Below, piece by piece: positions 9,649 through 38,483 of a DNA stretch of 41,537 nucleotides (position 1 is the stretch's first letter; every line of letters begins with the position of its first letter). The DNA comes from a virus, in IMG/VR virus record IMGVR_UViG_3300049010_000004, positions 1 through 41,537 of that record. One strand, 5' to 3'. The notes under the pieces are model-generated. The model was not told the DNA's origin, did not search any database, and saw nothing but the letters and a program-made list of their open reading frames with translations. Position numbers and translations under genes: made by a program.

Positions 9649-10314
9649 ATGCTTCCTGTGTATGTCGGGTATGACGAACGGGAAGCCGTCGCATACCACA
9701 CTTACTGCAATTCAATCATCAGACGGGCTACAAAGCCCGTTTCTTTTTGCCCATTAGCCTTAAACACGCTGCACGAATACGAAGAGAAGCACACAGACGG
9801 AAGTAACGCTTTCATCTATTCGCGCTTCCTAGTCCCTCATCTACAGAACTACCAAGGATGGGCGCTGTTTGCTGATGGCGACATGATCGTAAACGAAGAC
9901 ATCGCTAAGTTATTCGACTTGGCAGATGAAACCAAAGCCTTGATGGTGGTGAAGCATGACTACAAGACTAGATTCCCACGCAAGTATCTCGGCAACAAGA
10001 ACGAAGACTATCCACGGAAGAACTGGTCAAGCGTCATCCTGTGGAACTGCGGTCACCCAAAGAACAAGGTCCTTACGCCGGAATATATCCAACAGGCAAG
10101 CGGAGCACTTCTTCATCGCTTTCAATGGCTGGACGATGGAGACATCGGGCAACTGAAGCACGCATGGAATTGGTTGGTTTCCGAGTACAGCTATAACCCA
10201 TCAGCCAAGTTACTTCATTACACCGTAGGCACTCCCTGCTTCCAGGAATACGCAGACTGCGAACACGCAGATCAATGGTATTCGGAATACGAGAAGGCAA
10301 GAGCGCCACTTTAA
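9649..10314 (+). CDS. GT-A fold glycosyltransferase (GT8-like, DxD motif)
   Basis: 221 aa. 'VYVGYDEREAVAYHTYCNSI', 'YSRFLVPHL' and 'ALFADGDMIV' (DxD) fit retaining GT-A enzymes. Confidence 0.6.
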   Translation: MLPVYVGYDEREAVAYHTYCNSIIRRATKPVSFCPLALNTLHEYEEKHTDGSNAFIYSRFLVPHLQNYQGWALFADGDMIVNEDIAKLFDLADETKALMVVKHDYKTRFPRKYLGNKNEDYPRKNWSSVILWNCGHPKNKVLTPEYIQQASGALLHRFQWLDDGDIGQLKHAWNWLVSEYSYNPSAKLLHYTVGTPCFQEYADCEHADQWYSEYEKARAPL

Positions 10315-10341
10315 CCGCCAATAATCCAAAGGGAACTGGCA

Positions 10342-10554
10342 ATGGACAACACAGAATACATCAGCAACAAATTACGCGATTACCGAGACACTGTAGCTCA
10401 GCAGCAGAACACCATCTCGCAATTGATCGGCGGCAATTACCCATCAAGAGCAGTGGTAGAGCATGCACTAAAGACGCAATCTGGCTCAGTGCTAAACCTC
10501 AGTAAGGCCAAGCAAGAATTCTTCAATCAGTTACAGAAACAAGCATGCGAATAA
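10342..10554 (+). CDS. Hypothetical protein (70 aa)
   Basis: Preceded by the AATAATCCAAAGG.AACT.GCAAT leader that recurs before the next gene. Confidence 0.55.
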   Translation: MDNTEYISNKLRDYRDTVAQQQNTISQLIGGNYPSRAVVEHALKTQSGSVLNLSKAKQEFFNQLQKQACE

Positions 10555-10573
10555 TCCAAAGGAACTCGCAATC

Positions 10574-10891
10574 ATGATATCCGTGAAATCCATAAGAGAA
10601 ATACTTCAAGAGCGCCGAAAGAACAAAGTCAGGAATATTCCCGACAGCTATTTTGACGGAGGCAGGAGATTAGCGGATAGCGTGAATCAAATTGTAGGTA
10701 AGCATTGCTATAACTGCAAAAACGCAGTGGCTTATGTTACTTGGCATTGCGATGTGGATGAATGCGATTGGCAGCCTTGTTACAGCAGAGATCAAATCAC
10801 AAAAGCCGACTATGAAGCCGGTAATAGGTTAAGTATGGGATGGATAGAACTTCCTCCGCAAGTTATTGATAATCAGAAGGTTGCAGGTTGA
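10574..10891 (+). CDS. Hypothetical Cys-rich protein (105 aa)
   Basis: 'CYNCKNAVAYVTWHCDVDECDWQPC'; same repeated leader upstream. Confidence 0.55.
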   Translation: MISVKSIREILQERRKNKVRNIPDSYFDGGRRLADSVNQIVGKHCYNCKNAVAYVTWHCDVDECDWQPCYSRDQITKADYEAGNRLSMGWIELPPQVIDNQKVAG

Positions 10892-10898
10892 ATCAATT

Positions 10899-11165
10899 AT
10901 GGCCGCTCCTGAAGGTAACAAGAACGCCACTAAGAACAAGTACTGGTCTGATGCGCTTCGTAAATACATCTTACAGAACCCTAAAGAACTAGAGGAAGCA
11001 GCCAAGGCTTTGTTCGCTAAAGCCAAGGATGGCGATGTCGCTGCAATGAAAGAGATTGGCGATAGGTTAGAGGGTAAAGCAGTCCAGCGTGTAGAAGGCT
11101 CTGGTGAAGATGGCGAGTTCATCACCAAGATGATTGTGGAGCTAGTAGAGCCAAGTGGAAGTTAA
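10899..11165 (+). CDS. terS: Terminase small subunit (probable)
   Basis: 88 aa starting 'MAAPEGNKNATKNKYW'. Lies immediately upstream of TerL and overlaps it. The ORF-track TTG start at 10866 is less likely. Confidence 0.5.
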   Translation: MAAPEGNKNATKNKYWSDALRKYILQNPKELEEAAKALFAKAKDGDVAAMKEIGDRLEGKAVQRVEGSGEDGEFITKMIVELVEPSGS

Positions 11166-12420
11166 AGCACAGTTCCCTGCCAAGCTAGGGTTCCTGTTTC
11201 ATCCAAAGCGATACAAGGTGGCAAGAGGCGGGCGAGGCTCAGGCAAGTCATGGGGGTTCGCAAGGGCGCTACTCATTAAGGGCAATCAAGAGAAGCTGCG
11301 TATCGGATGCTTCCGAGAAGTGCAGAACTCCATCAAGGATTCTGTTCACAAGCTGCTGAATGACCAGATACAAGCATTAGGCTTGGGGCAGGATTACCAA
11401 GTCTTGGCGACTGAGATCAGAAACAAGCGCACCGGATCGGAGTTCCTGTTCTCCGGCCTATCAGACCAGACCGATGAATCCATCAAGTCGTTTGAAGGTT
11501 TGGATATAGCGTGGGTAGAAGAAGGCCAGGCCATCAGTAAGCGGTCTTGGTCAATCCTCATTCCTACTATTCGTAAGCCTAACTCCGAGATATGGGTGAG
11601 CTACAACCCAGACTTGGAAACGGATGAGACGCATCAGCGCTTTGCTGTAGATCCGCCAGAGGATTGCGTGTCCGTCCTCATGAATTACTCGGACAACCCT
11701 TGGTTCCCCGAAGTGCTTGAGAAAGAGCGCATAGAGTGCAAGAGGCGCTATCCGAAAGACTACCCGAACATCTGGGAAGGCAAATGCCGTCCTGCTGCTG
11801 AAGGCGCTATCTACTACGACGAGATGGAAGCGGTTCAGTCCAATGGGCAGATATTGAATCTCCCATACGATCCGAAGCTGAAAGTTCACGTAGTGGTGGA
11901 CTTGGGCTGGAACGATGCCATGTCCATCATTATGGTTCAGAAGACCATCTCCGAGATACGTGTCATTGACTACATCGAGGACACGCACAAGAAGCTGTCC
12001 GATTACTCGCAGATGCTTCATGAGCGTAAATACAACTGGGGCAAGCTGTTCATCCCGCACGATGGATACAACGAGGACGTCAAGGCGGCAAGTGCCTACA
12101 GAATCCTCAAGGATTTGGGATGGGACATTCCCGATAAGAATGATTTAGTCCAAATGAACATCGAGGCTGGCATTAAAGCTGCCAGATTGATATTCCCGCG
12201 CTGTTATTTCGACAAGGTAAAGGCTGCGAGGCTGATTGAGTGCCTCAAGCGCTATCGCCGCAACGTACCAAAGAACACCAACGAGCCAGCATCGCCAAAG
12301 CATGACGAGTTCTCGCATGGCGCTGATGCATTCCGCTATCTGGCACTCGCTGTAGACCAGATGAAGAACGAAGACCGAGCCTGGAAGCCCATCAAGTATC
12401 CGAACATGGGGATTGTGTGA
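11155..12420 (+). CDS. terL: Terminase large subunit
   Basis: 421 aa. Walker A 'GGRGSGKSW', Walker B-like 'LDIAWVEEGQ', and a C-terminal nuclease region ('VVVDLGWND', 'HGADAFRY'). Confidence 0.9.
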   Translation: MEVKAQFPAKLGFLFHPKRYKVARGGRGSGKSWGFARALLIKGNQEKLRIGCFREVQNSIKDSVHKLLNDQIQALGLGQDYQVLATEIRNKRTGSEFLFSGLSDQTDESIKSFEGLDIAWVEEGQAISKRSWSILIPTIRKPNSEIWVSYNPDLETDETHQRFAVDPPEDCVSVLMNYSDNPWFPEVLEKERIECKRRYPKDYPNIWEGKCRPAAEGAIYYDEMEAVQSNGQILNLPYDPKLKVHVVVDLGWNDAMSIIMVQKTISEIRVIDYIEDTHKKLSDYSQMLHERKYNWGKLFIPHDGYNEDVKAASAYRILKDLGWDIPDKNDLVQMNIEAGIKAARLIFPRCYFDKVKAARLIECLKRYRRNVPKNTNEPASPKHDEFSHGADAFRYLALAVDQMKNEDRAWKPIKYPNMGIV

Positions 12421-12578
12421 TTCTCAGAGTAGACATCTTTCTCCTGTGCGAGGCGAGCGACATTAGGACGCGCAAGGTAAATGCGGTAATTGAAGACCAA
12501 TCGGGCTTGAAGAGCAAAACATTCTCAGGCGACAACGCCGAAGCGGAAGCCAAGCAATGGATTAGAGAAAACCTATGA
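12417..12578 (+). CDS. Small ORF (53 aa, GTG start, not in ORF track)
   Basis: It fills the TerL-portal gap exactly, with a GTGTGA overlap on TerL and an ATGA overlap on the portal start. Confidence 0.4.
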   Translation: MILRVDIFLLCEASDIRTRKVNAVIEDQSGLKSKTFSGDNAEAEAKQWIRENL

Positions 12579-14689
12579 AGAAGATGACCGAAGACGAACT
12601 GATTGCCAGGATTGAGCAGGAAGAGAGAGTGTCTCTCGACTACCTGTCCGGCACGTTGTCAGATGAGCGCTCCGAGAACATGGAGCTTTATCTTGGCGAC
12701 AAGACCCGTGAGTTAGCAGCCATTGAAGGCCGTTCGTCCGTTGTCTCTATGGATGCACAGGAAGCGGTTGATTCCGTCATGCCGTACCTGATGAAAGTAT
12801 TCTGCTCCGGCGATGAAGTGGTCAAGTTCGATCCTGTCGGCCCTGAGGACGTAGAAGCCTCAGAGCAAGAGACTGACTATGTAAACCATGTGGTGATGAA
12901 CCAGAACAACTTCTTCTTGGTTGGCTATCAGTGGATCAAGGACGGCCTAATCACCAAGAACGGTTATTGCAAGTATTGGTGGGATGAGTCCGAGGATGTG
13001 ACCGAGGAACGGTACCAAGGGCTAACAGACCAAGAGTTTCAGATGCTGATTCAGGATGAGAGCGTAGAGCCATTAGAGCATACGTCCTATCCTGACACTA
13101 CAGACCCTATGGCGGCACAGATTGCAGAAGCCGCACAGATGGGCGACCAACAAGCGCTGATGATCCTCCAGCAAGGCCCGATGCTGCATGACTTGAAGGT
13201 AAAGATCCGCAACGTCAAAGGCCGCGTGAAGATTGAGCCATGCCCGCCTGAAGAAATCCTAGTAGCGCCTGATGAGCGCAACATCGACCCGAACACTACC
13301 CGCTTCTTTGAGCATAGGCAGTGGAAGACTATCTCCGATTTACGCGAGATGGGCTATGACATTGACGACGACATTGCAGACGACCCTACGACATTGTTTA
13401 TGTCAGAGGATTGGCTGAGCCGTCAGGAGTTCCCAGAAGAAGAGACTTGGCGCGATGAACCGACTGATGGCGTGATGCGCCGTGTGGTCTATCGTGAAGC
13501 CTATATCAAGGTTGACTTCGACGGTGATGGTATCGCTGAGCGTCGCCGTGTGTGCATGGTGGGCAAGACGGTTCTCGATAACGAATTGTGCGATGGTGTG
13601 CCGTTTGCAGCTTTAACGCCCTACATCGTGCCTCACCGCCATATCGGTCGTGCATTGGTGGACTTGAACAAGGATATTCAGGTCATCAAGACGGTGATCT
13701 TGCGGAACGTACTGGATAACTTCTACGCCTCCAATAACGGGCGTTGGGCTATCTCTGACCGCGTAAACCTGGACGACATGCTGGTATCCCGTCCTGGTGG
13801 CGTTGTGCGTGTAGAAGGCTCTCCTGGCAGCGAAATCATGCCATTGGTGACCAATCCCATCGGCAATGCAGCCTTCCCGCTGATGGAATACCTAGACACC
13901 ATCAAAGAGAACCGTACAGGCATCACCCGTTATAACCAGGGCATGGATTCGGACAGCCTCAACAAGACGGCATCCGGCATCAACCAGATCATGGATGCTG
14001 CACAGCAAAAGCAGGACTTGATTGCACGCACGTTGGCCGAGACTGGCGTTAAGCAACTGTTCCAAGGTGTCCACAAGATTATCAAGCAGCACGGCAACAA
14101 GGAAGAAGTGGTTAGGCTGCGCGGTAAGTGGGTTCCTGTTGATCCCCGTCAGTGGAAGTCTCGCACCGACATGACTGTGACTGTGGGTCTTGGCACTGGC
14201 AACAAGCAGGCCATGTTGGGCCAGATCATGAGCATCTTGGGTGTGCAGCAGCAAGCCCTGCAAATTGGCGTGGCTACCCCTCAGAACATCTACGAAGCCT
14301 GCATGGAGTTGACCAAGAACGCAGGGTTCAAGGACGGCGACAAGTATTGGACGAATCCCGTACAGCAACAACAGCAAGAGCCTCAACCTGACCCGAAGGT
14401 CATAGAGGCACAGATGAAGAATGAGCTGGAGAATAAGAAGCTCCAGCAAAAGGCAGAGAACGATCAGGCAACGCTTCTGCAAAAGCAAGAGGCACAAAGC
14501 CAGAACTTCTACCTTGGCATGCAGCAATTACTGCAACAAGCCGAGGAGGCAAACAGCAAGCGCATGTTGGAGCTAACCAAGATGGTCGAGGAAATCCAGC
14601 TTGAGACTAAGCGCATGGGCATGGACTTTGTTAAGCATCAATCATCCGAGCAGAACAAGATTGATTCAATCAGCAGGGATTCAATGTGA
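12575..14689 (+). CDS. Portal protein with Q-rich C-terminal coiled coil
   Basis: 704 aa, positioned after TerL. 'ERSENMELYLGD' N-terminal motif. The long QQQQQEPQ.../coiled-coil tail is reminiscent of the P22 portal barrel. Confidence 0.8.
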   Translation: MKKMTEDELIARIEQEERVSLDYLSGTLSDERSENMELYLGDKTRELAAIEGRSSVVSMDAQEAVDSVMPYLMKVFCSGDEVVKFDPVGPEDVEASEQETDYVNHVVMNQNNFFLVGYQWIKDGLITKNGYCKYWWDESEDVTEERYQGLTDQEFQMLIQDESVEPLEHTSYPDTTDPMAAQIAEAAQMGDQQALMILQQGPMLHDLKVKIRNVKGRVKIEPCPPEEILVAPDERNIDPNTTRFFEHRQWKTISDLREMGYDIDDDIADDPTTLFMSEDWLSRQEFPEEETWRDEPTDGVMRRVVYREAYIKVDFDGDGIAERRRVCMVGKTVLDNELCDGVPFAALTPYIVPHRHIGRALVDLNKDIQVIKTVILRNVLDNFYASNNGRWAISDRVNLDDMLVSRPGGVVRVEGSPGSEIMPLVTNPIGNAAFPLMEYLDTIKENRTGITRYNQGMDSDSLNKTASGINQIMDAAQQKQDLIARTLAETGVKQLFQGVHKIIKQHGNKEEVVRLRGKWVPVDPRQWKSRTDMTVTVGLGTGNKQAMLGQIMSILGVQQQALQIGVATPQNIYEACMELTKNAGFKDGDKYWTNPVQQQQQEPQPDPKVIEAQMKNELENKKLQQKAENDQATLLQKQEAQSQNFYLGMQQLLQQAEEANSKRMLELTKMVEEIQLETKRMGMDFVKHQSSEQNKIDSISRDSM

Positions 14690-14970
14690 GCCTGGAACAA
14701 GAAGCAGGACAAGGATTACAAGCAGAACGTCTCTTAGAGGAGCTATCCCCATATCTAGTCATGGTGCGAGAAGCCATCGTGCAGAAGTGGGAATCCTCCC
14801 CTGTATGCGATAAGGAAGGCCAGCACGAGCTGCGGTTGATGCGTAAGTTACTAGGTGACGTAGAGGCCAACATCAAGACCGCAATCGAGACTGGCAAGCT
14901 GGCACGTATCCAGATCGAGCGCGATTCAAAGCTTGAGCTAGTCAAAAAGGTAGTACGCAGGTTCGCATAG
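14686..14970 (+). CDS. Hypothetical head-module protein (94 aa)
   Basis: The GTG start overlaps the portal stop. Confidence 0.5.
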   Translation: MSLEQEAGQGLQAERLLEELSPYLVMVREAIVQKWESSPVCDKEGQHELRLMRKLLGDVEANIKTAIETGKLARIQIERDSKLELVKKVVRRFA

Positions 14971-15079
14971 CATTAAGCCGTTACTCAGTCGGCTTGATTA
15001 GCAATATTCACTGAGCAGTAGAACGTCGCGAGACGCCGTTGCAAGGGGACGCCCTTTGCACAGACCTTAGGAGTATGAA

Positions 15080-16051
15080 ATGAGTGACCAAGCCATTGAG
15101 CAGTCGCCACAAGAGTTAAGCATTGAAGACCGCTTTGCCACATTGCTGGCTGAGCCAGTTCCGGAAGAGGAAGAAGTAGCTGAATCCGAGGAACAACCCG
15201 CACCCCAAGATAACGAGGAAGAAGTAGAGACGACCGAGGAAGAAGGCACTCCTGAAGAGGAGCAAGCCGAAACCGAAGAAGAAACTGCCGAACTCGACCT
15301 TGTAGAGGTAGAAGTTGCAGGGAAGAAAATTCAAGTTCCAGAGGAACTTGTTGAGTATTCAAAAAGCCTTCAAGCGGACTACACCCGTAAAACGACGGAA
15401 GTCGCTGAACAACGTAAGCAAGTCGAGCAGATGCAGATGCAACTGCAACAACAAGCCCAGATTCAGCAAGAATCCCTCGCAGAATACGCACAATTAACGG
15501 CATTGGATAATCAGATCCAGGCGTTCAATCAAGTCGATTGGAATGCCCTGTACGACTCTGATCCTGCCGAATTCGTCAAGCTCAAGGAAGCGCGCCGAGA
15601 CCTTCTCGATAATCGCCAAGCCTTGGCTAACACGATTGGCACGAAACAACAGCAACTAGCAGCACAGCAACGCGAAACCTACATCAAGGCTGTCGAAGAA
15701 GGACAGAAGGTACTGGCAAGGGAGATTCCTAACTGGAATAACGAGCTTGCACGTAACCTTAACACTCTCGCAGTCGATAAGTACGGGTTCACGCCGGAAG
15801 AAGTGGCGCAAGTCATCGATCCTCGCGTAGTGAAGCTATTGCACGATGCCTATCGGTTCCAGAAACAACAATCCAACAGGCCAGTGGCTGAGAAGAAGGT
15901 GGCGAATCTACCTAAAGTCTCCAAGCCAGGAAGCCCAAGCGCAGCCAAGTCCGTGGCAACCAGCCGCGAGGCAGAGGCCCGCAAAGCACTGAAAAAGACT
16001 GGCTCAGTAGACGCAGCACAAGCTGTGTTCCTAGCCCGATATTCAAAGTAA
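15080..16051 (+). CDS. Scaffolding protein (probable)
   Basis: 323 aa. Extremely acidic N-terminus (EEEEVAESEEQ...), Q-rich coiled coils, located directly upstream of the capsid gene, RBS AGGAG. Confidence 0.6.
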   Translation: MSDQAIEQSPQELSIEDRFATLLAEPVPEEEEVAESEEQPAPQDNEEEVETTEEEGTPEEEQAETEEETAELDLVEVEVAGKKIQVPEELVEYSKSLQADYTRKTTEVAEQRKQVEQMQMQLQQQAQIQQESLAEYAQLTALDNQIQAFNQVDWNALYDSDPAEFVKLKEARRDLLDNRQALANTIGTKQQQLAAQQRETYIKAVEEGQKVLAREIPNWNNELARNLNTLAVDKYGFTPEEVAQVIDPRVVKLLHDAYRFQKQQSNRPVAEKKVANLPKVSKPGSPSAAKSVATSREAEARKALKKTGSVDAAQAVFLARYSK

Positions 16052-16081
16052 ACGCCGTGAGGCGCTACGAAAGGACAGACC

Positions 16082-17104
16082 ATGTTTAAGTTATTCAGCA
16101 TTTTCGCGCTGATGGAGTTCCTGACTCCTAAAGCTGTGCCTGGTGGCACGTTCCAAACCTTCCAAGCGGTCGGTAACCGTGAAGACTTGTCGGACATCAT
16201 CAACGACATTTCCCCAACCGAAACGCCGTTTTACTCCAAGGCCAAGAAGGGCACTGCTTCGGCAACCTTCCACGAATGGCAAACCGACGCTCTGGACGCA
16301 GCCGCTACCAATGCAGCTATCCAGGGTAATGACGCAGTAGTTAATACTGCAACACCAACTGTTCGCCTGCGGAACTACTGCCAGATCCTGACCAAGACTG
16401 TCTCGGTATCCGGTACGCAAGATGCAGTGAACAAGGCAGGCCGCGCAAGCGAACTGGCCTATCAGATGTCCAAGCGCTCCAAGGAACTGAAGCGCGACGT
16501 GGAATATGCTCTGGTGCGTAACCAAGCATCCACCTCCGGTGCTGCTGGCTCTGGTGCCACTTTGGCAGGTGTTGAATCGTGGCTGGCTACCAATAAGACA
16601 TCGGTCGGCACTGGTACTGCACAAACCACCCCAGGTTACTCTGGCGGCACGGTTGCATCCCCAACCGATTCGTCCGTTGCAGGTACTGTGACTGAAGCTA
16701 ACCTGAAGTCTGTTATTCAGGCTTGCTGGACGCAAGGCGGCGACCCTGGCGTGCTGATGGTTGGCCCTGCTACCAAGTCGAAGATCTCCGGCTCCTTCAA
16801 CGGTATCGCTACCCGCTATCGTGAAGTTCCAGGCATGAAGCAAGGCTCCATCGTTTCCGGTGTTGACTTGTACATCTCTGACTTCGGTGAGCACGAGATT
16901 GTGCCTAACCGCTTCATGCGCGATCAGAACATTCTGGTTCTGGATATGGACTATTGGACTGTGGCTTCCTTGCGCGGCTTCCAAGCGTTCGATCTGGCGA
17001 AGACTGGTGACAGCAATAAGAAGCAAATCCTTACCGAACTGACGCTTGTCTCCAACAACGAGAAGGCATCCGGCAAGGTAACTGACATCAATCCAGCGTT
17101 GTAA
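16082..17104 (+). CDS. Major capsid protein (HK97-fold, DUF5309/SU10-like by motif recall)
   Basis: 340 aa. 'GNREDLSDIINDISPTETPF', 'FHEWQTDAL', 'NYCQI', 'ELKRDVEYAL', 'YISDFGEHEIVPNRF'. Followed by a strong terminator. Confidence 0.8.
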   Translation: MFKLFSIFALMEFLTPKAVPGGTFQTFQAVGNREDLSDIINDISPTETPFYSKAKKGTASATFHEWQTDALDAAATNAAIQGNDAVVNTATPTVRLRNYCQILTKTVSVSGTQDAVNKAGRASELAYQMSKRSKELKRDVEYALVRNQASTSGAAGSGATLAGVESWLATNKTSVGTGTAQTTPGYSGGTVASPTDSSVAGTVTEANLKSVIQACWTQGGDPGVLMVGPATKSKISGSFNGIATRYREVPGMKQGSIVSGVDLYISDFGEHEIVPNRFMRDQNILVLDMDYWTVASLRGFQAFDLAKTGDSNKKQILTELTLVSNNEKASGKVTDINPAL

Positions 17105-17113
17105 TGATTGAGG

Positions 17114-17141
17114 GGGAGGGGAGCAATCCTCTCCCTTTTTT
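17114..17141 (+). terminator. Intrinsic terminator immediately after the capsid gene
   Basis: GGGAGGGG/CCTCTCCC 8-bp stem (one G-U pair), loop AGCAAT, TTTTTT 17136..17141. The next ATG is at 17142. Confidence 0.75.
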
Positions 17142-17477
17142 ATGGATAAAAGAGTCCTAGACTACGACCCGCTAAGCAAGATCATCACATGGTTTGCTTA
17201 CGACGATGACACTGACACGACTTACATCGAATACACAGGCGGTGATGCTAGGCAAAAGGCCGAGCAGTCACAAACGCTACAGAATGACGAGAACTACACC
17301 AAGATAGGTCTCAAGAACAGCATGGTTCACTATGCCCACATCAGCGATGAGCAGTTGCTCCGCTGGCATTGCATGGGGATCGACATCAAGGACAAGAGCG
17401 AACTATTCCGCATGGTCAATAAACCAGAATACAGCAAGCTCAAGACCACGACCTTAGTACACAAGCCCAAGGGCTAA
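17142..17477 (+). CDS. Hypothetical protein (111 aa)
   Basis: First ORF after the capsid terminator; no recognisable motif. Confidence 0.55.
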   Translation: MDKRVLDYDPLSKIITWFAYDDDTDTTYIEYTGGDARQKAEQSQTLQNDENYTKIGLKNSMVHYAHISDEQLLRWHCMGIDIKDKSELFRMVNKPEYSKLKTTTLVHKPKG

Positions 17478-18833
17478 ATGGCAAACATCCTGGACGCGAT
17501 CCGTTATGTAGAGAACGGTGAGCCGGACGAGGCACTGAGAATCGCCTCACAGATACTGAATGACGAACCTGAACAGGTAGATGCTATCTGCGTAGCAGGA
17601 CAGGCGCTGCTGAATGCCGAGCGGTATGGGTTAGCTTATAACTTGTACAAGAGAGCACTAGAGTTAAGACCTGACATCTCAGGCATATGGAACAACATTG
17701 GCCTAGTTTGCATGAAGATGATGCGGGACGATGAGGCCAGAAAGTACCTGACACGCTCCCTTAATATGGAGCCAGATAATACGGCGGCATTGAATAACAT
17801 GGCGCTGATAGAAGTAAATAATGGTAATCCTCAAGGCGCTGTCGTATTGGGGAATAAATCGCTATCCATCAATCCTGACCAGTCCGATGTGAGAGAGACG
17901 CTAGGTTATGCGAATCTCATGCTAGGTAATTGGGAAGCAGGGTGGGAAGGGTACGAAGCGATGGTGGGGACGGAGAAACATAGAACCTTCCCGCCGCGTA
18001 AAGATAAGCCCTATTGGGATGGAGCTAGGGGATTGACCCTGAATATCCGTGGGGAGCAGGGGATCGGGGACGAAATATCCTTTTCCTCGATGATTCCTGA
18101 CGTATCCCGTGAGAACAAGGTGATTCTGGAGTGCGATGCAAGGCTCTATGGCCTGTTCAATCGCAGTTTTCCTGATATCACTGTGTATCCAACCCGCTTT
18201 GAGAAGACTCCTGAGTGGGTAGATAGTCAAGATTTCGACGCATGGTGCTTGATTGGCTCGCTTGGCTGGCATTACAGGGTGAAAAGTAGTGATTTTAGTG
18301 GTATTCCGTACCTGAAAGCCTGTCCAGAGCGCAAAAGTCACTGGAAAGCAGAGTTATCTAAGCTAGGAAACAGGAAAAAGGTCGGGATCGCGTGGAATGG
18401 TGGCCTGAAAGACACGTTCAAGGAGCGCAGAAGCCTGGATTTAGAGCAATTGCTACCGATCCTCTCTCAAGACTGCACGTTTATCAGCCTTGAGTACAAA
18501 ACACCCCATGAATTAGCGGATTTTGAGCAGGAATACGGGATCAAGATATACCACTTCCCAGAAGCGACAGAATCCAAGGACTACGACGACACAGCAGCAC
18601 TGGTAGACGAGCTAGACCTCGTTATCTCGGTGCAAACCGCTGTCGTTCACCTAGCAGGGGCGTTAGGGAAGCCTTGCTGGACACTCATCCCGAACAAACC
18701 TAACTGGAGATACGCTACGCCGCGTTTCATGTGGGGTAACAGCGTAGAACTGTTCAGGCAGGGTAAGACATGGGGCGAGCCGATTAAATGCGTTACAGAG
18801 CGATTGCAGAGGTTTATTGATGGGTCTAGGTGA
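17478..18833 (+). CDS. TPR-repeat protein fused to a GT9-like (heptosyltransferase-fold) glycosyltransferase domain
   Basis: 451 aa. N-terminal TPRs ('YNLYKRALELRPDISGIWNNIGLV', 'ARKYLTRSLNMEPDNTAALNNMA'). C-terminal 'GEQGIGDEISF' and 'DLVISVQTAVVHLAGALGKPCWTLIP' match the TPR-GT9 family pattern. Confidence 0.7.
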   Translation: MANILDAIRYVENGEPDEALRIASQILNDEPEQVDAICVAGQALLNAERYGLAYNLYKRALELRPDISGIWNNIGLVCMKMMRDDEARKYLTRSLNMEPDNTAALNNMALIEVNNGNPQGAVVLGNKSLSINPDQSDVRETLGYANLMLGNWEAGWEGYEAMVGTEKHRTFPPRKDKPYWDGARGLTLNIRGEQGIGDEISFSSMIPDVSRENKVILECDARLYGLFNRSFPDITVYPTRFEKTPEWVDSQDFDAWCLIGSLGWHYRVKSSDFSGIPYLKACPERKSHWKAELSKLGNRKKVGIAWNGGLKDTFKERRSLDLEQLLPILSQDCTFISLEYKTPHELADFEQEYGIKIYHFPEATESKDYDDTAALVDELDLVISVQTAVVHLAGALGKPCWTLIPNKPNWRYATPRFMWGNSVELFRQGKTWGEPIKCVTERLQRFIDGSR

Positions 18834-19650
18834 CTGGATCATGGCGACCGCAGACGCCAAGGAAGTGAACGAGCGTCACGGTGTGCGTGTGGTGTTTGGC
18901 GATGGGGTCAACAAGTTCTACGACGAAGTATTCGAGGGTAATCCAAGGATCGCAAAGGAACTGAGACCTAATGAGCGTTTTGCTTGGGTCAAGAATTACC
19001 CTGGACACAGACCGTACATCAAGCAGATCCACAAAGGTCACTTTGAGTTTCATCCAGACTTCAAGGCCAAGCCTGGCGAGTTATATCTGGGTGACGTGGA
19101 AAAGAACGGCTATGTTTTGATCGAGCCGAACGTGAAGCAGGACTTCTGGATAGGCAAGAACAAGGATTGGGGGCTGGATAACTGGAAAGCCCTTGTATCC
19201 AAGCTGGATTGTGACTGGCGGCAGATCGGTACGGATAAGTTTCTGGACAAGCAGCACGCACTCAGGACAAAAACCTTCATGCAGGCGGCAAGGGTGCTTG
19301 CAGGAGCAAAGCTCTTAATCACTACAGACGGGGCCTTACATCATGCAGCGGCTGCCCTCGGCGTGCCTTCGATTGTGTTGTGGGGTGGCGTGGCTCATCC
19401 GCGCAATCTTGGCTATGACACTCATATCAACCTGCATCATGGTGATGAGCCTTGCGGGTCTCATTCAAAGAAGTGCGAACACTGCCAGAAAGCTATGGCG
19501 AAAATCACTGTAGAGGAAGTCCTAGAAGCCTATGAAAGAAGTCAACGGGATTTGGTTGCCGGATCACGAAAGCCATCTGGAGCAGTACGCAAAGGCCGGC
19601 GAGTACGGCAGATGGACGTATCAGGGGCACAAGCTACTGGAAGCCCTTAA
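18820..19650 (+). CDS. GT9-family glycosyltransferase (ADP-heptose heptosyltransferase-like)
   Basis: 'GLGDWIMATA' and 'LITTDGALHHAAAALGVPSIVLWGG' correspond to the GT9 signatures (lGDvim..., DSGpmHlAaAlgtP). The 3' end overlaps the next ORF by 119 nt. Confidence 0.75.
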   Translation: MGLGDWIMATADAKEVNERHGVRVVFGDGVNKFYDEVFEGNPRIAKELRPNERFAWVKNYPGHRPYIKQIHKGHFEFHPDFKAKPGELYLGDVEKNGYVLIEPNVKQDFWIGKNKDWGLDNWKALVSKLDCDWRQIGTDKFLDKQHALRTKTFMQAARVLAGAKLLITTDGALHHAAAALGVPSIVLWGGVAHPRNLGYDTHINLHHGDEPCGSHSKKCEHCQKAMAKITVEEVLEAYERSQRDLVAGSRKPSGAVRKGRRVRQMDVSGAQATGSP

Positions 19651-20164
19651 GTGGGTGAACGGTATTGAATTAGCGATTGATGTAGGCGGGCATTGCGGGC
19701 TGTGGTCGAAAGAGCTAGTCAAGATATTCGATAACGTCGTGGCCTTTGAGCCAGTCGCCGATCACCGAGCCTGCTACGTGAAAAACGTCAAGGCCGACAA
19801 CTACACACTGCATCCCGTAGCCCTTGGCGACAAGGAAGACTTTATCTCTATCCATACCTCTATCGGTTCGTCCGGTGATTCATGGGTGGATGGCAAGGGT
19901 GATATCCCGGTCAAGCTGCTGGATACCTACAACCTTAATCCCGACTTCATCAAACTCGACTGTGAAGGCTTTGAATACTTCGCGCTCAAGGGTGGGGAAG
20001 AGATGCTGAAGCGCAGTAAGCCTTGTGTGATTGTCGAGCAGAAGCCTGGCAGGGCAAAGAAGTTCGGATTGAAAGACACGCAGGCTGTCACCTATCTGGA
20101 ATCGTTGGGCGCAAAGCTACGCAAGGAAATCTCTGGTGATTTCATCCTCAGTTGGGAAGATTGA
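19532..20164 (+). CDS. FkbM-family SAM-dependent methyltransferase
   Basis: 210 aa. 'AIDVGGHCGLWS', 'VVAFEPV' and 'FIKLDCEGFEYFALKGG' match Methyltransf_21/FkbM motifs. Confidence 0.75.
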   Translation: MKEVNGIWLPDHESHLEQYAKAGEYGRWTYQGHKLLEALKWVNGIELAIDVGGHCGLWSKELVKIFDNVVAFEPVADHRACYVKNVKADNYTLHPVALGDKEDFISIHTSIGSSGDSWVDGKGDIPVKLLDTYNLNPDFIKLDCEGFEYFALKGGEEMLKRSKPCVIVEQKPGRAKKFGLKDTQAVTYLESLGAKLRKEISGDFILSWED

Positions 20165-20846
20165 CACCAGATCAAAGAGCGAACAGCGAGAGAGAGTCCG
20201 CAAGCAGATACGGGCCGATGTGCCCGTTTTTTTTGGGTTCGACCAGATAGACAACCTGAAGGCATTAAAGGCCAAAGGCGAACCATTCCTCTATGTAGAC
20301 CATGCCTACTTTGACAGGGGCTACGAGCGAGGCAATTTCAGGGCGGTGTATTGCAACATCCACCAGACCCAAGAATTGGATTTACCGGACGACAGGCGCA
20401 AGCAGTTCGGGGTGAAGTTGAGGGATTGGCAGGAATGGCCTGATGGCAGAGTGGTATTCATCCCTAGCCCAAAGAACCCTACGGATTACCACAAAGAACA
20501 CAAGTGGAACGATGACGCAATAGACCTTCTGGTGAAGAAGACCAGGAGAGAGATATACGTCAAGAGCCAGAAGACCAAGGGTCTAGGGGATTCGATACAC
20601 AAGGCATGGGCATTGGTATCCCATTGTTCTGTAGCTGCGGTAGAGGCTGCTTGCCACGGTATTCCTGTAGTGACTTCAAGACATAACCCTGCGGCTCCTA
20701 TCTCTGTGGATCTGGAGCACATAGAAAGCCCCATTCGCCCTGATCGGGACAAGTGGGTGAACACCCTTACCTATTCGCAATTCACGCTGCAAGAGCTTAG
20801 CGATGGCTCAGCATGGCAGATCATTAAGGAAATGAACCGACTATGA
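20136..20846 (+). CDS. Hypothetical protein, possibly a GT-B-like glycosyltransferase C-terminal half
   Basis: 236 aa. GTG start with an AAGGAA RBS. 'ALVSHCSVAAVEAACHGIPVVT' resembles the nucleotide-sugar-binding helix region of GT-B enzymes. This is a weak call. Confidence 0.35.
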   Translation: MISSSVGKIDTRSKSEQRERVRKQIRADVPVFFGFDQIDNLKALKAKGEPFLYVDHAYFDRGYERGNFRAVYCNIHQTQELDLPDDRRKQFGVKLRDWQEWPDGRVVFIPSPKNPTDYHKEHKWNDDAIDLLVKKTRREIYVKSQKTKGLGDSIHKAWALVSHCSVAAVEAACHGIPVVTSRHNPAAPISVDLEHIESPIRPDRDKWVNTLTYSQFTLQELSDGSAWQIIKEMNRL

Positions 20847-21454
20847 GCATCACTAACTATACCGAGCTGCAAACAGCGGTGGCTAGCTGGCTGTCTCGTG
20901 CAGATTTGACGAGCATCATCCCAGACTTCATCGCCTTGGCAGAGGCCAAGTTCCAGCGTGAACTACGCACCCGCAACATGGAAGCCATTGTGTCTATCAC
21001 GCCTAGTTCCGGCGTGTGTGCATTGCCTGCTGACTTCCTGCAAGCGCGAAGGGTGTACGTGAACGCAGATGAGCCGTATGAGCTTGAGTATCTGACACCT
21101 GAGAACTTCTACCTGAAGTATCCGGTGCTTACTACCTGGTCGGTCGGGCCTAGCCGTTATTACACGATTCAAGGCTCTAATCTGTACCTATCAGACATTG
21201 CGAGCGGGAATGACATTAGCTTGCTGTACTACCAAGAAATCCCTGATTTAGCGACGAATAGCACCAATTGGCTGCTGACCAATCACCCGGATTTGTACTT
21301 GTATGGCGCGTTGTTTGAATCGACCAACAAGACCAAAAACCGCGAAGACCGCGCCTTCTTTACTGAGGCCATGAATGTGGTATTGGGCCAGATTGCCAAA
21401 TCCGACAAGCACGGCAAGTTCTCCGGCTCGGCGATGCGAGTTATCTCAGCATGA
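20843..21454 (+). CDS. Virion protein, head-to-tail adaptor-like (by position and conserved N-terminus)
   Basis: 203 aa. 'ITNYTELQTAVASWLSRADLTSIIPDFIALAEAKFQRELR' is a pattern I recall from podophage structural modules. Confidence 0.4.
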   Translation: MSITNYTELQTAVASWLSRADLTSIIPDFIALAEAKFQRELRTRNMEAIVSITPSSGVCALPADFLQARRVYVNADEPYELEYLTPENFYLKYPVLTTWSVGPSRYYTIQGSNLYLSDIASGNDISLLYYQEIPDLATNSTNWLLTNHPDLYLYGALFESTNKTKNREDRAFFTEAMNVVLGQIAKSDKHGKFSGSAMRVISA

Positions 21455-22914: not shown

Positions 22915-23207
22915 GGCTGAATCTCTATAACCGCGTTCCAGCTCAGTACGATCGACAAATCTTCGTCAAGTTACTGCTAGACATGCAGAACCAGATTAAC
23001 GCTTTATCCGAGGGGCAATTGGTCGGCAGGTATAACGCCACGACTTCAGCCCCTACGACTGGCACATACGCTATCGGGGATATTGTCTATAACTCCAATC
23101 CTAGTGAATTAGGTTCGGCGAGTAGCAAATATATCCTGCTGGCGTGGTTATGCACGGACGATGACCCGCTGACGTTCAAAGAATTGCGCTGTTTGACGGG
23201 TAACTGA
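22911..23207 (+). CDS. Hypothetical structural-module protein (98 aa)
   Basis: ATGA overlap upstream. Confidence 0.5.
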   Translation: MRLNLYNRVPAQYDRQIFVKLLLDMQNQINALSEGQLVGRYNATTSAPTTGTYAIGDIVYNSNPSELGSASSKYILLAWLCTDDDPLTFKELRCLTGN

Positions 23208-23602
23208 TGATCTGTTGCGGGTTGGATATGAAGTTTTGGGATGAAGTTGAGCCAGCGATTCAGGAGGCTTTATTTCTTGATGCTGGGCGCATATCAACCA
23301 AAGACATAAAAGATGCTATAGAGGCTCAGCAAATGCAGTTATGGGGCATCCATGACGGTATTTTGCGGGCAGTAGTTGTCACCGAGATGGTGGATTACAA
23401 GCAAATGCGCGTTGTCAGGTTTATCACCTGCACGGGGCGCGATATGGATACTTGGTTAGACCTCTTAATCGACACAATCGCCCAATGGGGAGCAGAGCAA
23501 GGCGCTCATGCATTGGAATTCGTCGGACGCAAGGGGTGGGAAAAAGCGCTATCCAAAAGAGGGTTTGGCAATACGCAAGTATTCATGACAAAGATTATCT
23601 GA
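23207..23602 (+). CDS. Hypothetical structural-module protein (131 aa; alternative start 23228)
   Basis: Co-directional; faint GNAT-like tail 'GAHALEFVGRKGWEKALSKRGF'. Confidence 0.45.
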   Translation: MICCGLDMKFWDEVEPAIQEALFLDAGRISTKDIKDAIEAQQMQLWGIHDGILRAVVVTEMVDYKQMRVVRFITCTGRDMDTWLDLLIDTIAQWGAEQGAHALEFVGRKGWEKALSKRGFGNTQVFMTKII

Positions 23603-30894: not shown

Positions 30895-31097
30895 CCGATA
30901 AAGTGGTTCCAATTCGCAAGCCACCGCCAGAAAGCAAGCTGGTCTCTCTTTTCAACCGCATGTTGCACCAGAGAATCGAAGGCATCACGGTCGATTCCGA
31001 AGAAGTGATACTGGTTCTGGAAGACGGAACAAACGTCACTTTCTGGTCGGATGAGGATTTGAACATCACCTACATATTGCCGGAGATGGACGATTGA
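30891..31097 (+). CDS. Hypothetical protein (68 aa)
   Basis: ATG 30891 chosen over the longer ORF-track start because of the ATGA coupling. Confidence 0.5.
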   Translation: MTDKVVPIRKPPPESKLVSLFNRMLHQRIEGITVDSEEVILVLEDGTNVTFWSDEDLNITYILPEMDD

Positions 31098-33727: not shown

Positions 33728-33983
33728 TTTCGTAATGCGTGACGTTACGGCTTACATTCACATCAAACTTAGCAATATACTCCCCACGATACTCCGAAAC
33801 CCGCTCTGGTGCTAGTAGTCCGCTTCCCCCTCCCGGCACCATCTTACTTCCATTAGTTTCTGCGTATAGCGGAAAACCCTTTACTTTTAGCCATTCTCCG
33901 CTTTACCATCGCCACTGATTTCCACCCAAAATGGAACGAAATGGCATATCAACTCCCCATTTTCTCCCCACTTGAGCGACCCA
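33728..33983. other. Probable attP region upstream of the integrase
   Basis: 256-bp ORF-free gap next to int. Inverted repeat TGGTGC 33807..33812 / GCACCA 33836..33841. CTCCCCA occurs three times (33780, 33953, 33964). The core was not identified. Confidence 0.4.
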
Positions 33984-38051: not shown

Positions 38052-38483
38052 TTAGAAGGGAATATCATCTTCAAAGTCATCAAAACCCGACTTTTGTTCA
38101 TTAGATTCCGGCTGCGATTGTGCAGGTTGCGGACTCTCATTTTGGCCTGAAGACTTGCCACCAAGCATCTGCAACTTGTCGATCACAACGCCATAGGAGA
38201 CTTTTTCATTGCCTTCCTTGTCCGTGTACTTGTCAGACTGGATACGGCCTTCTACGTACACGCTAGACCCCTTCTTGAGGTACTCTCCGGCGATTTCTGC
38301 CAGCTTCCCGAAGGCGGTGAGTCGATGCCACTCTGTGCGCTCCTGTTTCTGTCCTGACTTGTCCTTCCAGGTCTCGGTCGTGGCGATTGAGAAGTTAGCG
38401 ATAGCGTCACCGGACGGTGCGTAACGCATCTCAGGATCTCGCCCAAGGTTGCCAAGTAGGATTGCTTTGTTTACTGATGCCAT
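38052..38483 (-). CDS. ssb: Single-stranded DNA-binding protein
   Basis: 143 aa. '[18 protein letters not shown]', OB-fold layout, and the acidic tail '...DDFEDDIPF'. Confidence 0.9.

Follow-up and report, generated by a model that had tools for sequence, protein, structure and literature searches.

Which molecule is modified by a set of glycosyltransferases and a methyltransferase whose genes a phage carries between its capsid gene and its head-tail adaptor gene? This question is raised by the window, a stretch of viral DNA of 41,537 nucleotides. It is the circularly permuted genome of a temperate phage and encodes a CI-like repressor, NinG and RecT as well as an integrase (gene at positions 33972-35000). 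Its host is an uncultured Gram-negative. Among the scanned genes of the window, the sole DNA-modifying gene is that of an N6/N4 DNA methylase.

Layout and expression of the locus

Four tightly coupled open reading frames on the plus strand had been predicted between the capsid and adaptor genes, and all of them are present at the predicted positions (Table 1). Each has many homologs with identities of 45-95%, and the four are therefore real genes rather than chance reading frames. The locus is bounded upstream by the capsid gene and downstream by the adaptor gene. An additional core gene for a protein of 111 amino acids (cluster c0), overlooked in the original prediction, separates the capsid gene from the cassette. 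The cassette always lies 3' of c0, which itself stands outside the variable cassette and is the last gene before the adaptor in loci that have no cassette; Pfam and PHROG profile searches returned no family match for its product. In one related locus (L088), c0 is in frame with the capsid gene.

Overlapping start and stop codons run from c0 to the adaptor gene: the c0 stop codon at 17477 abuts the ATG of the first cassette gene at 17478, and overlaps of 14 nt (18820-18833), 29 nt (20136-20164) and 4 nt (20843-20846, ATGA) join this gene to that of the compact GT9-family enzyme (GT9b), the FkbM gene to that of the 236-aa protein, and the latter to the adaptor gene. The terminator proposed behind the capsid gene exists as a strong hairpin with a T-run; it is located at 17110-17137 instead of 17114-17141, and its T-run abuts the ATG at 17142. 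It is likely an attenuator that lowers downstream expression relative to the capsid gene. A promoter scan, restricted to the sigma-70-type consensus, yielded five promoter-like sites where 8.7 were expected by chance, and the promoter and hairpin scans found no promoter/terminator pair bracketing the cassette. The chained start and stop codons and the lack of above-chance promoters point to expression together with the structural genes, so that none would be anticipated in a lysogen. The cassette is thus, as had been argued, unlike a lysogenic-conversion moron: it has no promoter/terminator pair of its own, is chained to the adaptor gene and is fixed in its capsid clade.

Table 1. Features of the locus and of the separately located GT8 gene, with the evidence for each assignment.
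Feature	Position	Strand	Evidence
GT8-family (GT-A) glycosyltransferase	9649..10314	+	Pfam Glyco_transf_8, 31.3 bits (cutoff 24.3)
Major capsid protein, SU10/LUZ24 type	16082..17104	+	PF17236, E 1e-94; phrog_1328, E 2e-100
Hairpin and T-run	17110..17137	+	11-bp stem with 6 GC pairs, then TTTTTT; directly 3' of the capsid stop codon
Core 111-aa gene, cluster c0	17142..17477	+	in 66/67 loci
TPR and GT-B glycosyltransferase (TPR-GT), 451 aa	17478..18833	+	TPR families, E down to 3e-14; predicted fold
Compact GT9-family glycosyltransferase (GT9b), 276 aa from ATG	18820..19650	+	PF01075, 33.8 bits (cutoff 22)
FkbM-family SAM-dependent methyltransferase, 210 aa	19532..20164	+	TIGR01444, 64.8 bits (cutoff 37.7)
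GT-B-like protein (o236), 236 aa, GTG start	20136..20846	+	AlphaFold pLDDT 93; fold match
Head-tail adaptor, SU10	20843..21454	+	PF24175, E 2e-32; phrog_2941, E 2e-48

The encoded enzymes

The enzyme identities proposed for the four cassette genes hold: a TPR and GT-B fusion, a GT9 enzyme, an FkbM methyltransferase and a GT-B-like protein. In the AlphaFold model of the first of these (TPR-GT; pLDDT 95), about five TPR helix pairs at residues 4-160 precede a GT-B domain at residues 187-448. Foldseek comparison of the whole protein with the PDB placed SPINDLY, OGT and XcOGT on top (E 6e-11), and the TPRs of OGT were the best natural-protein match for its TPRs. SPINDLY and OGT are protein glycosyltransferases, and the architecture suspected for the phage enzyme is thus borne out; match 14 is a capsule polymerase. 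In the BFVD, phage relatives match over the full length, and the catalytic domain is similar to that of phage proteins annotated as GT9. The motif E193-Q-G-x-G-D198 is invariant, and at the level of sequence the catalytic domain matches no enzyme of solved structure. The GT9-like domain that had been claimed is GT9-like by fold; its Pfam score of 17.6 bits is under the GT9 threshold of 22 bits, and the Asp of the D-T-G donor motif is missing.

GT9b passes the Pfam GT9 threshold with a match that covers the C-terminal part only, and its non-conserved C-terminal tail overlaps the FkbM gene; a TTG codon is found at 18817, upstream of its ATG start. Like WaaC and WaaF, it retains the Lys that binds the donor as well as the D-T-G motif, since N114-K115-x-W117 (equivalent to K192 of WaaC) and T169-D170-G171, H174 and H175 (equivalent to D261-T-G of WaaC) are invariant, and it is about 50-70 residues shorter than WaaC. 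A profile of its family retrieved only WaaC (5e-4) and WaaF (2e-3) from the PDB and not TibC, so that membership in the TibC/Aah group, as originally envisioned, is not upheld. An invariant Cys/His cluster in the C-lobe (C212, C219, H221, C222) is loosely reminiscent of the iron finger of TibC, which takes part in the recognition of the protein substrate (PMC4358343), but it has the form C-x6-C-x-H-C rather than four Cys. The suggestion that heptose is transferred is weak: the GT9 donor signature is preserved in GT9b only, not in the TPR-GT.

The FkbM assignment is further buttressed by matches to PF05050 (44, cutoff 22.7) and phrog_8156 (E 5e-25). The JGI gene call on the identical contig begins at a GTG equivalent to 19655 and gives 169 amino acids; the long form (200-216 aa) is kept in all ten loci of its cluster. 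The 236-aa protein has no Pfam, NCBIfam or PHROG match; the fold of its predicted model is similar to that of retaining beta-Kdo transferases. Its 15 best Foldseek matches in the PDB are all WbbB (GT99), KpsC (GT107) or KrkA, with probabilities up to 1.0 (E 7e-4), although the TM-score on the query is only 0.48, the identity is 6-12%, and no sequence or profile match to these three proteins was obtained. WbbB and KpsC are multi-domain enzymes, and members of the 236-aa family (3773 representative clusters) are likewise found fused to other glycosyltransferase domains, of the GT4 type in three of ten long members sampled.

A further glycosyltransferase gene, which the original prediction had missed, is positioned upstream of the terminase genes, away from the cassette. 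Its GT8-family product displays a DxD-type 'DGD' motif and belongs to a cluster (c4) whose members are situated inside the cassette in relatives; it is 64% identical to an in-cassette gene of locus L010, 45% to a 'galT-like' gene of MW202512, 39-49% to GT8 genes adjoining cellular TPR-GT homologs, and 30% to CcrColossus gp129. We assign it to the enzyme set as a fifth member that has been displaced.

Relatives in phages and cells

Relative to cassette-free relatives, the block is indeed extra DNA, the capsid-adaptor interval measuring 3.7 kb here and 0.7-1.1 kb in those phages. To call it inserted is nevertheless misleading, because the arrangement is ancient and vertically inherited: the phage TPR-GTs form a single clade, the gene is kept in 26/26 members of one deep capsid clade with one state change on the capsid tree, and it co-diverges with the capsid (Spearman 0.60, Mantel p 0.001). 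In each of the 22 viral loci that carry it, the TPR-GT gene is the first of the cassette, after c0 and before the adaptor. The partner genes (GT8, SAM methyltransferases, FkbM, a hexapeptide acyltransferase) turn over while the TPR-GT stays, as genes do in glycan loci; one relative (L166) has a nucleotide-sugar pathway consisting of a HAD phosphatase, a nucleotidyltransferase and a DegT aminotransferase. Relatives also carry unrelated cargo in the interval (genes for an HNH toxin, an M23 peptidase and a Tpt1 fusion), and hence the argument from position is weaker than had been stated. GT8, o236, FkbM and GT9b also occur as a set among the structural genes of virulent jumbo phages of Caulobacter, and their function is therefore independent of lysogeny.

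Among 71 non-phage loci with cellular relatives of the TPR-GT, 27 have type IVa pilin genes at a distance of 80-3000 bp, mostly on the same strand, and 24 of the 71 possess the same GT8 as well; a Pfam tally of the neighbours gave 7 Pilin, 35 TPR and 4 GT41 proteins. The phage and cellular enzymes are only 31-46% identical, the phage proteins constituting an old clade of their own. In Synechococcus, a cytoplasmic TPR-GT encoded beside pilA is required for pilin glycosylation (PMC9306852). Genes for this type of enzyme thus adjoin, in two unrelated settings, that of a structural protein which is abundant and extracellular and forms polymers.

The likely acceptor

From the enzyme families and folds, their fixed position, their embedding in the operon, the clade-wide retention, the turnover of partners and the link to pilin-associated cellular enzymes, we infer, at a probability of roughly one half, that the cassette together with GT8 constitutes a late-expressed, cytoplasmic system for the O-glycosylation of a virion protein. 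The TPR domain would bind a folded structural protein of the phage, the TPR-GT being the substrate-selecting and initiating enzyme whose GT-B domain attaches the first sugar; GT8, GT9b and the beta-Kdo-transferase-like o236 would extend the glycan from host nucleotide sugars, and the FkbM enzyme would O-methylate it. The capsid protein is a candidate acceptor, as are the c0 protein and other components of the head or tail; the phage particle would then wear a glycan coat. The Ser and Thr content of the capsid protein does not differ between phages that have the cassette and those that lack it (19.5%), giving no acceptor signal there, and site differences between the two groups of capsids are fully confounded by phylogeny.

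Virion proteins are the most likely targets because of the clade-wide retention of the TPR-GT and its kinship to pilin-adjacent bacterial enzymes. This same kinship, shared by GT8, could equally indicate a host pilin, and the cassette might glycosylate type IV pilin or another secreted host protein, thereby masking the phage receptor (superinfection exclusion) or remodelling the host surface. The cyanobacterial precedent and the temperate nature of the phage fit this explanation, as does a report that pilus glycosylation protects Pseudomonas aeruginosa from pilus-specific phages (bioRxiv 10.1101/150227). We regard it as unlikely, however: the genes form part of the chain of the late structural operon and have no more promoter-like sites than chance would give, it is hard to see what a phage would gain by altering pili minutes ahead of lysis, the phage enzymes are distant from the cellular ones, fixation in a clade and co-divergence with the capsid are unlike the behaviour of sporadic exclusion genes, and related enzymes are present in virulent Caulobacter phages.

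Slightly less probable still, in our estimation, is that the enzymes alter a glycolipid or polysaccharide of the host, for instance its LPS core, O-antigen or capsule, as phages do in classical serotype conversion or in receptor masking. GT9, GT8 and Kdo-transferase-like proteins are enzyme families of LPS core synthesis, and TPR domains appear in polysaccharide enzymes too, as the predicted structural match to the capsule polymerase illustrates; both points speak against a protein acceptor. The outer-core transferases of LPS belong to family GT8, GT9b matched no PDB enzymes other than those whose donor signature it keeps, o236 in its modelled fold is similar to Kdo transferases of O-antigen and capsule synthesis, homologs are labelled 'ADP-heptose:LPS heptosyltransferase' in the source annotations, and the LPS-type donors that such enzymes would use are present in any Gram-negative host. 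Nevertheless, the cassette has no membrane-spanning, flippase or polymerase partners, its late-operon embedding and clade-wide retention oppose lysogenic conversion, the cellular homolog clusters adjoin pilin genes and not LPS core loci, and the fold of the entire TPR-GT matches protein glycosyltransferases first. Conversion cassettes of the gtrABC and epsilon15 types are likewise glycosyltransferase genes carried by temperate phages, but the genes studied here are distant from att/int, have neither a promoter/terminator of their own nor membrane components, and are fixed in their clade and chained to structural genes. DNA-glycosylating GT-B enzymes of phages are well known. Glycosylation of the phage DNA as a base hypermodification, or the production of a free small glycoconjugate, is nonetheless very improbable here: diverse phage glycosyltransferases are reported to act on DNA (bioRxiv 10.1101/2023.12.21.572611), but no hydroxymethylase, TET-type or other base-modifying partner was found among the scanned genes of the window, and such a role is at odds with the TPR domain, with the relatives linked to pilin genes and with the location of the genes in the head module.

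Glycosylation of a virion protein, the reading we favour, has its closest enzymatic counterparts in the cyanobacterial Ogt and in the Caulobacter enzyme FlmG, whose TPR domain binds the protein substrate while its GT-B domain transfers the sugar (PMC7591256). By architecture, all three are soluble enzymes in which N-terminal TPRs precede a GT-B domain, and their genes adjoin that of an extracellular structural protein which forms polymers; cellular relatives of the phage enzyme are encoded beside pilin genes just as ogt is. The phage protein differs in being shorter, in a catalytic domain that is GT9-like by fold and has no GT41 Pfam match, and in having a capsid gene as its structural neighbour; its glycosyltransferase activity is predicted. 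To our knowledge, glycosylation of virions has been demonstrated only for mycobacteriophages. Capsid and tail-tube subunits of Che8 and other mycobacteriophages are reported to carry glycans made by phage glycosyltransferases (Freeman et al. 2023, via PMC11256854 and PMC12619734), which form a glycan shield. These phages are siphoviruses of actinobacterial hosts, and the text examined describes no TPR-GT initiator for them; in mycobacteriophage Maravista, the glycosyltransferase genes are located close to the 3' genome end rather than in the head module.

Layout of the head module and its enzyme cassette

The window represents the circularly permuted genome of a temperate phage (Table). A DnaB-like helicase, NinG and a DNA methylase are encoded as well, and the genes for the adaptor and for a 487-aa virion protein come further downstream than the capsid gene. 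A DNA-level search of the phage collection matched nothing but a 143-bp stretch within the capsid gene (about 70% identity), and hence identified no close cultured relatives. The exact window proteins are found in metagenome assemblies only, and where phage contigs have been binned into MAGs, the MAG labels disagree with each other.

Coordinates of the main features of the window
Feature	Position	Strand	Remark
CI-like repressor	505-1170	minus	
GT8-family glycosyltransferase	9649-10314		
Large terminase	11155-12420		
Portal	12575-14689		head module
Scaffold	15080-16051		head module
Capsid, SU10/LUZ24 type	16082-17104		head module
Strong hairpin with T-run	17110-17137		directly after the capsid stop codon
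c0, 111-aa gene	17142-17477		
TPR protein (TPR-GT), 451 aa	17478-18833		
GT9 enzyme (GT9b)	18820-19650		
FkbM methyltransferase	19532-20164		alternative start possible at 19655
236-aa protein	20136-20846		
SU10-type adaptor	20843-21454		
Integrase	33972-35000		
RecT	38483-39487	minus	

The gene order, the chained start and stop codons, the hairpin behind the capsid gene, and a number of promoter-like sites not above chance confirm the observation from which the original prediction started: an enzyme cassette (17478-20846) is lodged between the capsid and adaptor genes. Its four co-directional, coupled genes are all real and chained, but the interval holds five co-directional genes, c0 included; start and stop codons overlap or abut along the whole chain up to the adaptor gene. 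A scan for sigma-70 consensus sites found five promoter-like sites where 8.7 were expected by chance, and none of them bracket the cassette. A lysogenic-conversion moron, already disfavored in the original prediction, is further downgraded by this lack of bracketing sites and by the presence of TPR-GT in 26 of 26 members of its phage clade, a fixed and not a sporadic occurrence.

GGAGG-like runs occur in the 5' arm of the post-capsid hairpin (region 17110-17145), and the T-run behind it directly adjoins the start codon ATG of c0, a start codon with no ribosome-binding site nearby; the hairpin may couple termination to the initiation of c0 translation. Another terminator-like hairpin, followed by a T8 run, is present within the gene for the 236-aa protein (20210-20227); it is probably coincidental, since the T-run codes for a conserved 'VFFG' motif.

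Properties of the cassette enzymes

The enzyme assignments made in the original prediction hold for all four proteins: a TPR protein with a GT-B domain, a GT9 enzyme, an FkbM methyltransferase, and a GT-B-like 236-aa protein. TPR-GT has strong matches to TPR profiles (E 3e-14), and its AlphaFold model (pLDDT 95, with 46 homologs as input) predicts approximately five TPR helix pairs (aa 4-160), followed by a GT-B domain with two Rossmann-like lobes (aa 187-448). Its sequence shows neither a signal peptide nor a membrane segment, and the modeled protein has the architecture of GT41 enzymes, an N-terminal TPR superhelix and a GT-B domain in one soluble chain. When the whole fold was compared with the PDB, the top 13 matches were SPINDLY (SPY), OGT, and the Xanthomonas OGT homolog XcOGT (E 6e-11 to 5e-9), at TM values of only 0.32-0.41. 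Among predicted viral structures, whole-length relatives occur in cyanophage S-SRM01 and in uncultured phages (TM 0.72-0.73). The comparison with OGT and FlmG drawn in the original prediction is borne out with respect to domain order and, for OGT, to fold, but the GT41 catalytic domain PF13844 gave no match at E <= 0.1.

The proposed fusion to a GT9-like domain may hold with respect to the fold: the catalytic domain alone aligned best in BFVD with phage proteins named GT9 (TMt 0.70-0.76), while the whole protein ranked GT41 enzymes first in the PDB. The match to the Pfam GT9 model PF01075 reaches 17.6 bits over only 32 residues and is thus under the gathering threshold of 22; a profile of the catalytic domain matched no PDB sequence at E <= 1. 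An hhalign comparison of the TPR-GT and GT9b families (83%, 42 columns) revealed the C-terminal donor motif as their only common region, where 'ISVQTAVVHLAGALG' stands opposite 'ITTDGALHHAAAALG', and the Asp residue of the D-T-G donor motif is replaced by Q, T or P in the TPR-GT family. On account of these fold, profile and motif results, we regard TPR-GT as a TPR plus GT-B enzyme with a probably GT9-like fold that belongs to neither GT9 nor GT41.

GT9b matches PF01075 with 33.8 bits (cutoff 22; E 2.8e-8) over profile positions 174-239 of 247 only, and WaaC and WaaF were the sole PDB matches of its family profile. In the profile alignment, the donor-binding signature corresponding to Lys192 and D261-T-G...H of WaaC (2GT1) is present; across 31 family members, N114-K115-x-W117 does not vary, and neither do T169-D170-G171, H174 and H175. 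In GT9 enzymes, an N-terminal G-x-G-D motif carries the catalytic Asp (Asp13 of WaaC); a candidate equivalent, 'MGLGDWIM', is contained in the GT9b family consensus, but many homologs are cut at the N-terminus. The C-terminal lobe also has an invariant C-x6-C-x-H-C cluster (aa 212-222; window 19453-19485), probably a metal site; the alignment with WaaC stops at profile position 208, just short of it. The protein heptosyltransferase TibC possesses a four-Cys iron finger that aids the recognition of its protein substrate (PMC4358343), to which the GT9b cluster bears a loose resemblance and nothing further. Membership of GT9b in the TibC/Aah (BAHT) group, which the original prediction had brought up for comparison, was rejected, because the GT9b profile retrieved WaaC and WaaF from the PDB but not TibC. 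The heptose and TibC specifics of the original prediction are weak.

The FkbM methyltransferase exceeds both curated cutoffs (TIGR01444, 64.8 versus 37.7 bits; PF05050, 44 versus 22.7 bits) and contains a glycine-rich 'DVGGHCG' stretch. The 236-aa protein matched no Pfam, NCBIfam or PHROG model, and sequence and profile searches against the PDB retrieved nothing. Its model (pLDDT 93) is predicted to resemble retaining beta-Kdo transferases (GT99/GT107), as all of the top 15 PDB fold matches are WbbB, KpsC or KrkA (E from 7e-4, TMq at most 0.48). With 3773 representative clusters at E <= 1e-3, this family is a large one, and three of ten long members sampled are fused to GT4-type glycosyltransferase domains. 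There is a hint in hhalign profile comparisons that it may be related to GT9b (68%, E 5e-5 without the chimeric P0155; 95.6% with it). P0155 (233 aa, metagenomic) combines a GT9b-like N-terminus with the C-terminal half of the 236-aa family, and is either a natural fusion or a mis-assembly.

A GT8 enzyme is encoded at some distance from these genes; it matches PF01501 with 31.3 bits (cutoff 24.3), and its DxD motif is contained in 'FADGDMIV'. It belongs to gene cluster c4, the commonest partner family of TPR-GT in related phages, where it is encoded directly downstream of TPR-GT, and shares 64% identity with the gene inside the cassette of L010, a viral locus with the same full enzyme set. In the window phage and in its closest relative, L004/L006 (capsid 99% identical), the gene is displaced to a position 7 kb upstream, before the terminase genes. 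From its sequence relationships, we consider GT8 to be a fifth enzyme, the displaced in-cassette partner of TPR-GT.

Relatives in phages and in cellular genomes

To place the cassette among related phages, 80 viral contigs with related capsid genes were fetched, and all genes between capsid and adaptor were clustered in 67 loci. About 40 of these have a minimal interval of 0.66-1.13 kb with two or three small genes, the last of which is always c0, a gene present in 66 of the 67 loci. TPR-GT directly follows c0 in 22 loci, with variable partners downstream of it: GT8 (16 loci), FkbM (10), a 204-261-aa protein of unknown function (7), GT9b (4), the 236-aa protein (4), and additionally SAM methyltransferases, a hexapeptide acyltransferase and several unknowns. 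PHROG and Pfam scans matched neither the small genes c1 and c2 of cassette-free phages nor the partner clusters c6, c15, c20, c22, c23 and c28. A 44-kb phage contig (L166; GCA_034680565.1 JAXOUH010002352.1) has a cassette of 7.8 kb between its capsid and adaptor genes as well (10001-17560), to which genes for a SAM methyltransferase, a HAD phosphatase/hydrolase, a nucleotidyltransferase and a DegT sugar aminotransferase (E 3e-78) are added; five unknown genes are also present. To judge by these assignments, the added genes amount to a nucleotide-sugar pathway, with which the phage seems to produce an activated amino sugar of its own. In the 44-kb circular podovirus genome MW202512, which is without an annotated integrase, the capsid gene is followed at the same place by two small genes and genes for a TPR protein (33% identity), a homing endonuclease, FkbM and GT8.

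A single state change on the capsid tree separates cassette-bearing from cassette-free phages, and TPR-GT is kept in all 26 members of the cassette clade, within which capsid identity falls to about 42-56%. Six of these members were found via TPR-GT itself and constitute a biased sample; the 20 found via the capsid give the same pattern. Identities of TPR-GT track those of the capsid (Spearman 0.60, Mantel p 0.001), with TPR-GT being the faster-evolving protein (60-67% identity where capsids share 88-91%). This retention and tracking indicate that the cassette is an old, vertically inherited part of the head module with a fast-changing tailoring set; the original prediction had viewed it as an inserted block, and a recent insertion is not what the comparison of related phages revealed. 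As a caveat, the interval doubles as a general landing site, since the capsid/c0 junction of some cassette-free relatives holds unrelated cargo (L020 9017-12193, L022 4194-7844, L023 9037-10879, L026 10372-12634): an M23 peptidase, a 419-aa protein with a Tpt1/KptA RNA 2'-phosphotransferase domain (E 3e-47), an HNH/EndoVII toxin-like nuclease, and 473-550-aa unknowns. In L088 (5581-6933), the capsid ORF runs in frame and with no stop codon into the c0 homolog (453 aa); this is either a true capsid-c0 fusion or a sequencing error, and, if real, would make c0 a capsid-attached domain.

The virulent Caulobacter jumbo phages CcrColossus (L001 4323-8876, gp126-gp131) and C1 (L003 4343-8873) possess an enzyme cluster that is flanked by the gene for a large tail protein on one side and by lysis genes, which follow it, on the other. 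It encodes a sialyltransferase-like protein, homologs of the 236-aa protein, GT8 and GT9b, and an FkbM enzyme; TPR-GT is absent. These two phages are culturable systems that share enzyme families with the window.

A scan with the TPR-GT alignment of one genome per species yielded 77 loci, six of which are phage contigs binned into MAGs with the order capsid-c0-TPR-GT-...-adaptor. The other 71 are non-phage loci, some of them on contigs of 0.5-1.5 Mb, which originate mostly from Betaproteobacteria/Burkholderiales, and also from Methylococcaceae, Pirellulales and Acidobacteria; their proteins are 31-41% identical to the window TPR-GT. GT8 enzymes (39-49% identical to that of the window; median distance 850 bp) accompany 24 of them, and related methyltransferases 20. 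According to a motif scan, 27 of these 71 loci encode type IVa pilins (GFTLIELMIVVAIIGILAA...), with one to three genes per locus, mostly on the same strand as TPR-GT and 80-3000 bp downstream; for 14 of the pilin-less loci, less than 3 kb of downstream sequence was available. In a Pfam tally of 132 neighboring ORFs from 12 non-phage loci, 35 TPR proteins (tandem paralogs), seven type IV pilins with the N-methylation motif, and four GT41 enzymes were counted. A pilin-linked TPR-GT/GT8 system in Betaproteobacteria and relatives is probable. A neighbor-joining tree built from the catalytic domain unites the 29 phage proteins in a single clade, to which none of the cellular proteins belong.

Pilin glycosylation in Synechococcus elongatus requires a cytoplasmic TPR-glycosyltransferase encoded beside pilA, and ogt is adjacent to pilin genes in 38% of cyanobacterial genomes (PMC9306852). 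Our literature searches found no description of proteobacterial TPR-GT/GT8/pilin clusters or TPR-GT9 pilin systems. At L093 (3165-13109), and also at L104, L118 and L138, up to six genes for TPR proteins of about 550-630 aa are arrayed in tandem beside one to three type IVa pilin genes, sometimes together with GT41 enzymes and GAF/HD-domain proteins; such arrays may constitute an undescribed pilin-modification island of Betaproteobacteria and methanotrophs.

The candidate acceptor and the envisioned pathway

A soluble protein O-glycosylation pathway is the best-supported reading of the cassette. The TPR domain would select a folded protein acceptor, as in FlmG, whose TPR domain binds flagellin and whose GT-B domain is inactive by itself in vivo (PMC7591256). 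The GT-B domain of TPR-GT would then attach the first sugar, GT8, GT9b and the Kdo-transferase-like 236-aa protein would lengthen the glycan, and FkbM would methylate it. Since the window cassette contains no sugar-activation genes, the donors must be supplied by the host; judged by family names only, UDP-hexose, ADP-heptose and CMP-Kdo would fit.

A virion protein is favored as the acceptor by the chaining of the cassette into the late operon, its fixation in a capsid clade, and the enzyme sets in structural regions of the virulent Caulobacter jumbo phages. The virion-glycosylation hypothesis of the original prediction is the best available candidate. The capsids themselves gave no acceptor signal in the form of a Ser/Thr-rich insertion or extra Ser/Thr residues, the S+T fraction being identical with and without the cassette. 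Five capsid columns are specific to cassette-bearing phages as against 14 in the opposite direction, all of them confounded by the one split in the tree, and a Thr-rich capsid loop ('TGTAQTTPGY') is only a lead. As a precedent, virion glycosylation is reported for some mycobacteriophages (PMC11256854, PMC12619734), the only phages in which it is known to be established by experiment; there, it alters antibody recognition. Literature searches for this cassette and for virion glycosylation in Caulobacter phages found no description of either.

The same enzymes could instead modify a host pilin or another surface protein. The pilin link of the cellular TPR-GT relatives speaks for such a target, and pilus glycosylation has been reported to block pilus-specific phages (bioRxiv 10.1101/150227), but the embedding in the late operon and the fixation in the clade oppose it, and we deem it unlikely. 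Modification of LPS or polysaccharide is a slightly poorer candidate: the cassette is made up of enzyme families that serve in the synthesis of LPS core and capsule, but it lacks membrane partners, and the cellular clusters adjoin pilin genes. Glycosylation of DNA or a small molecule seems to us very improbable, while an explanation that we have not considered retains a small probability, somewhat above that of the host-pilin reading. A more far-reaching version of the virion reading, to which we give a probability of roughly 0.35, is that a deep and widespread clade of aquatic podophages of Gram-negative hosts builds a glycan coat onto its virions, and that this glycan diversifies rapidly. 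The system would stem from a single capture of an undescribed cytoplasmic proteobacterial pilin-glycosylation system (TPR-GT, GT8 and a methyltransferase), whose target would have changed from pilin to a capsid protein.

The component folds are already known, as is virion glycosylation in one other phage group. What is new is that phages of Gram-negative hosts have a presumed initiating enzyme of the OGT/FlmG type whose gene is fixed in the head module of a whole clade, that its tailoring set is modular, that cellular clusters next to pilin genes are linked to it, and that a large glycosyltransferase-like family is without a family model. If the single-capture reading is true, the cassette would be the first virion glycosylation system outside the actinobacteriophages, and would also point to a new bacterial pilin glycosylation pathway and, with the 236-aa protein, a new glycosyltransferase family. 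Should a whole clade of phages of Gram-negative hosts glycosylate its particles through an OGT-like selector and a swappable tailoring set, phage surfaces would vary more in their chemistry than is assumed in structural models, which would affect adsorption, stability and grazing, as well as immune recognition in phage therapy. As a compact set of soluble, cytoplasmic enzymes for protein glycosylation, the cassette might then also be useful in glycoengineering.

Two further genes of the window deserve mention. A homolog of a DNA polymerase exonuclease subunit (31094-31840; phrog_403, E 4e-92) is located between tail-fiber genes and the integrase, apart from the remaining replication genes. In the tail region, the sole match of a 131-aa ORF (23207-23602) is phrog_25629 (unknown function); a gene at the equivalent position of MW202512 is annotated as 'putative acyltransferase', and the structural module may contain a second enzyme that modifies proteins.
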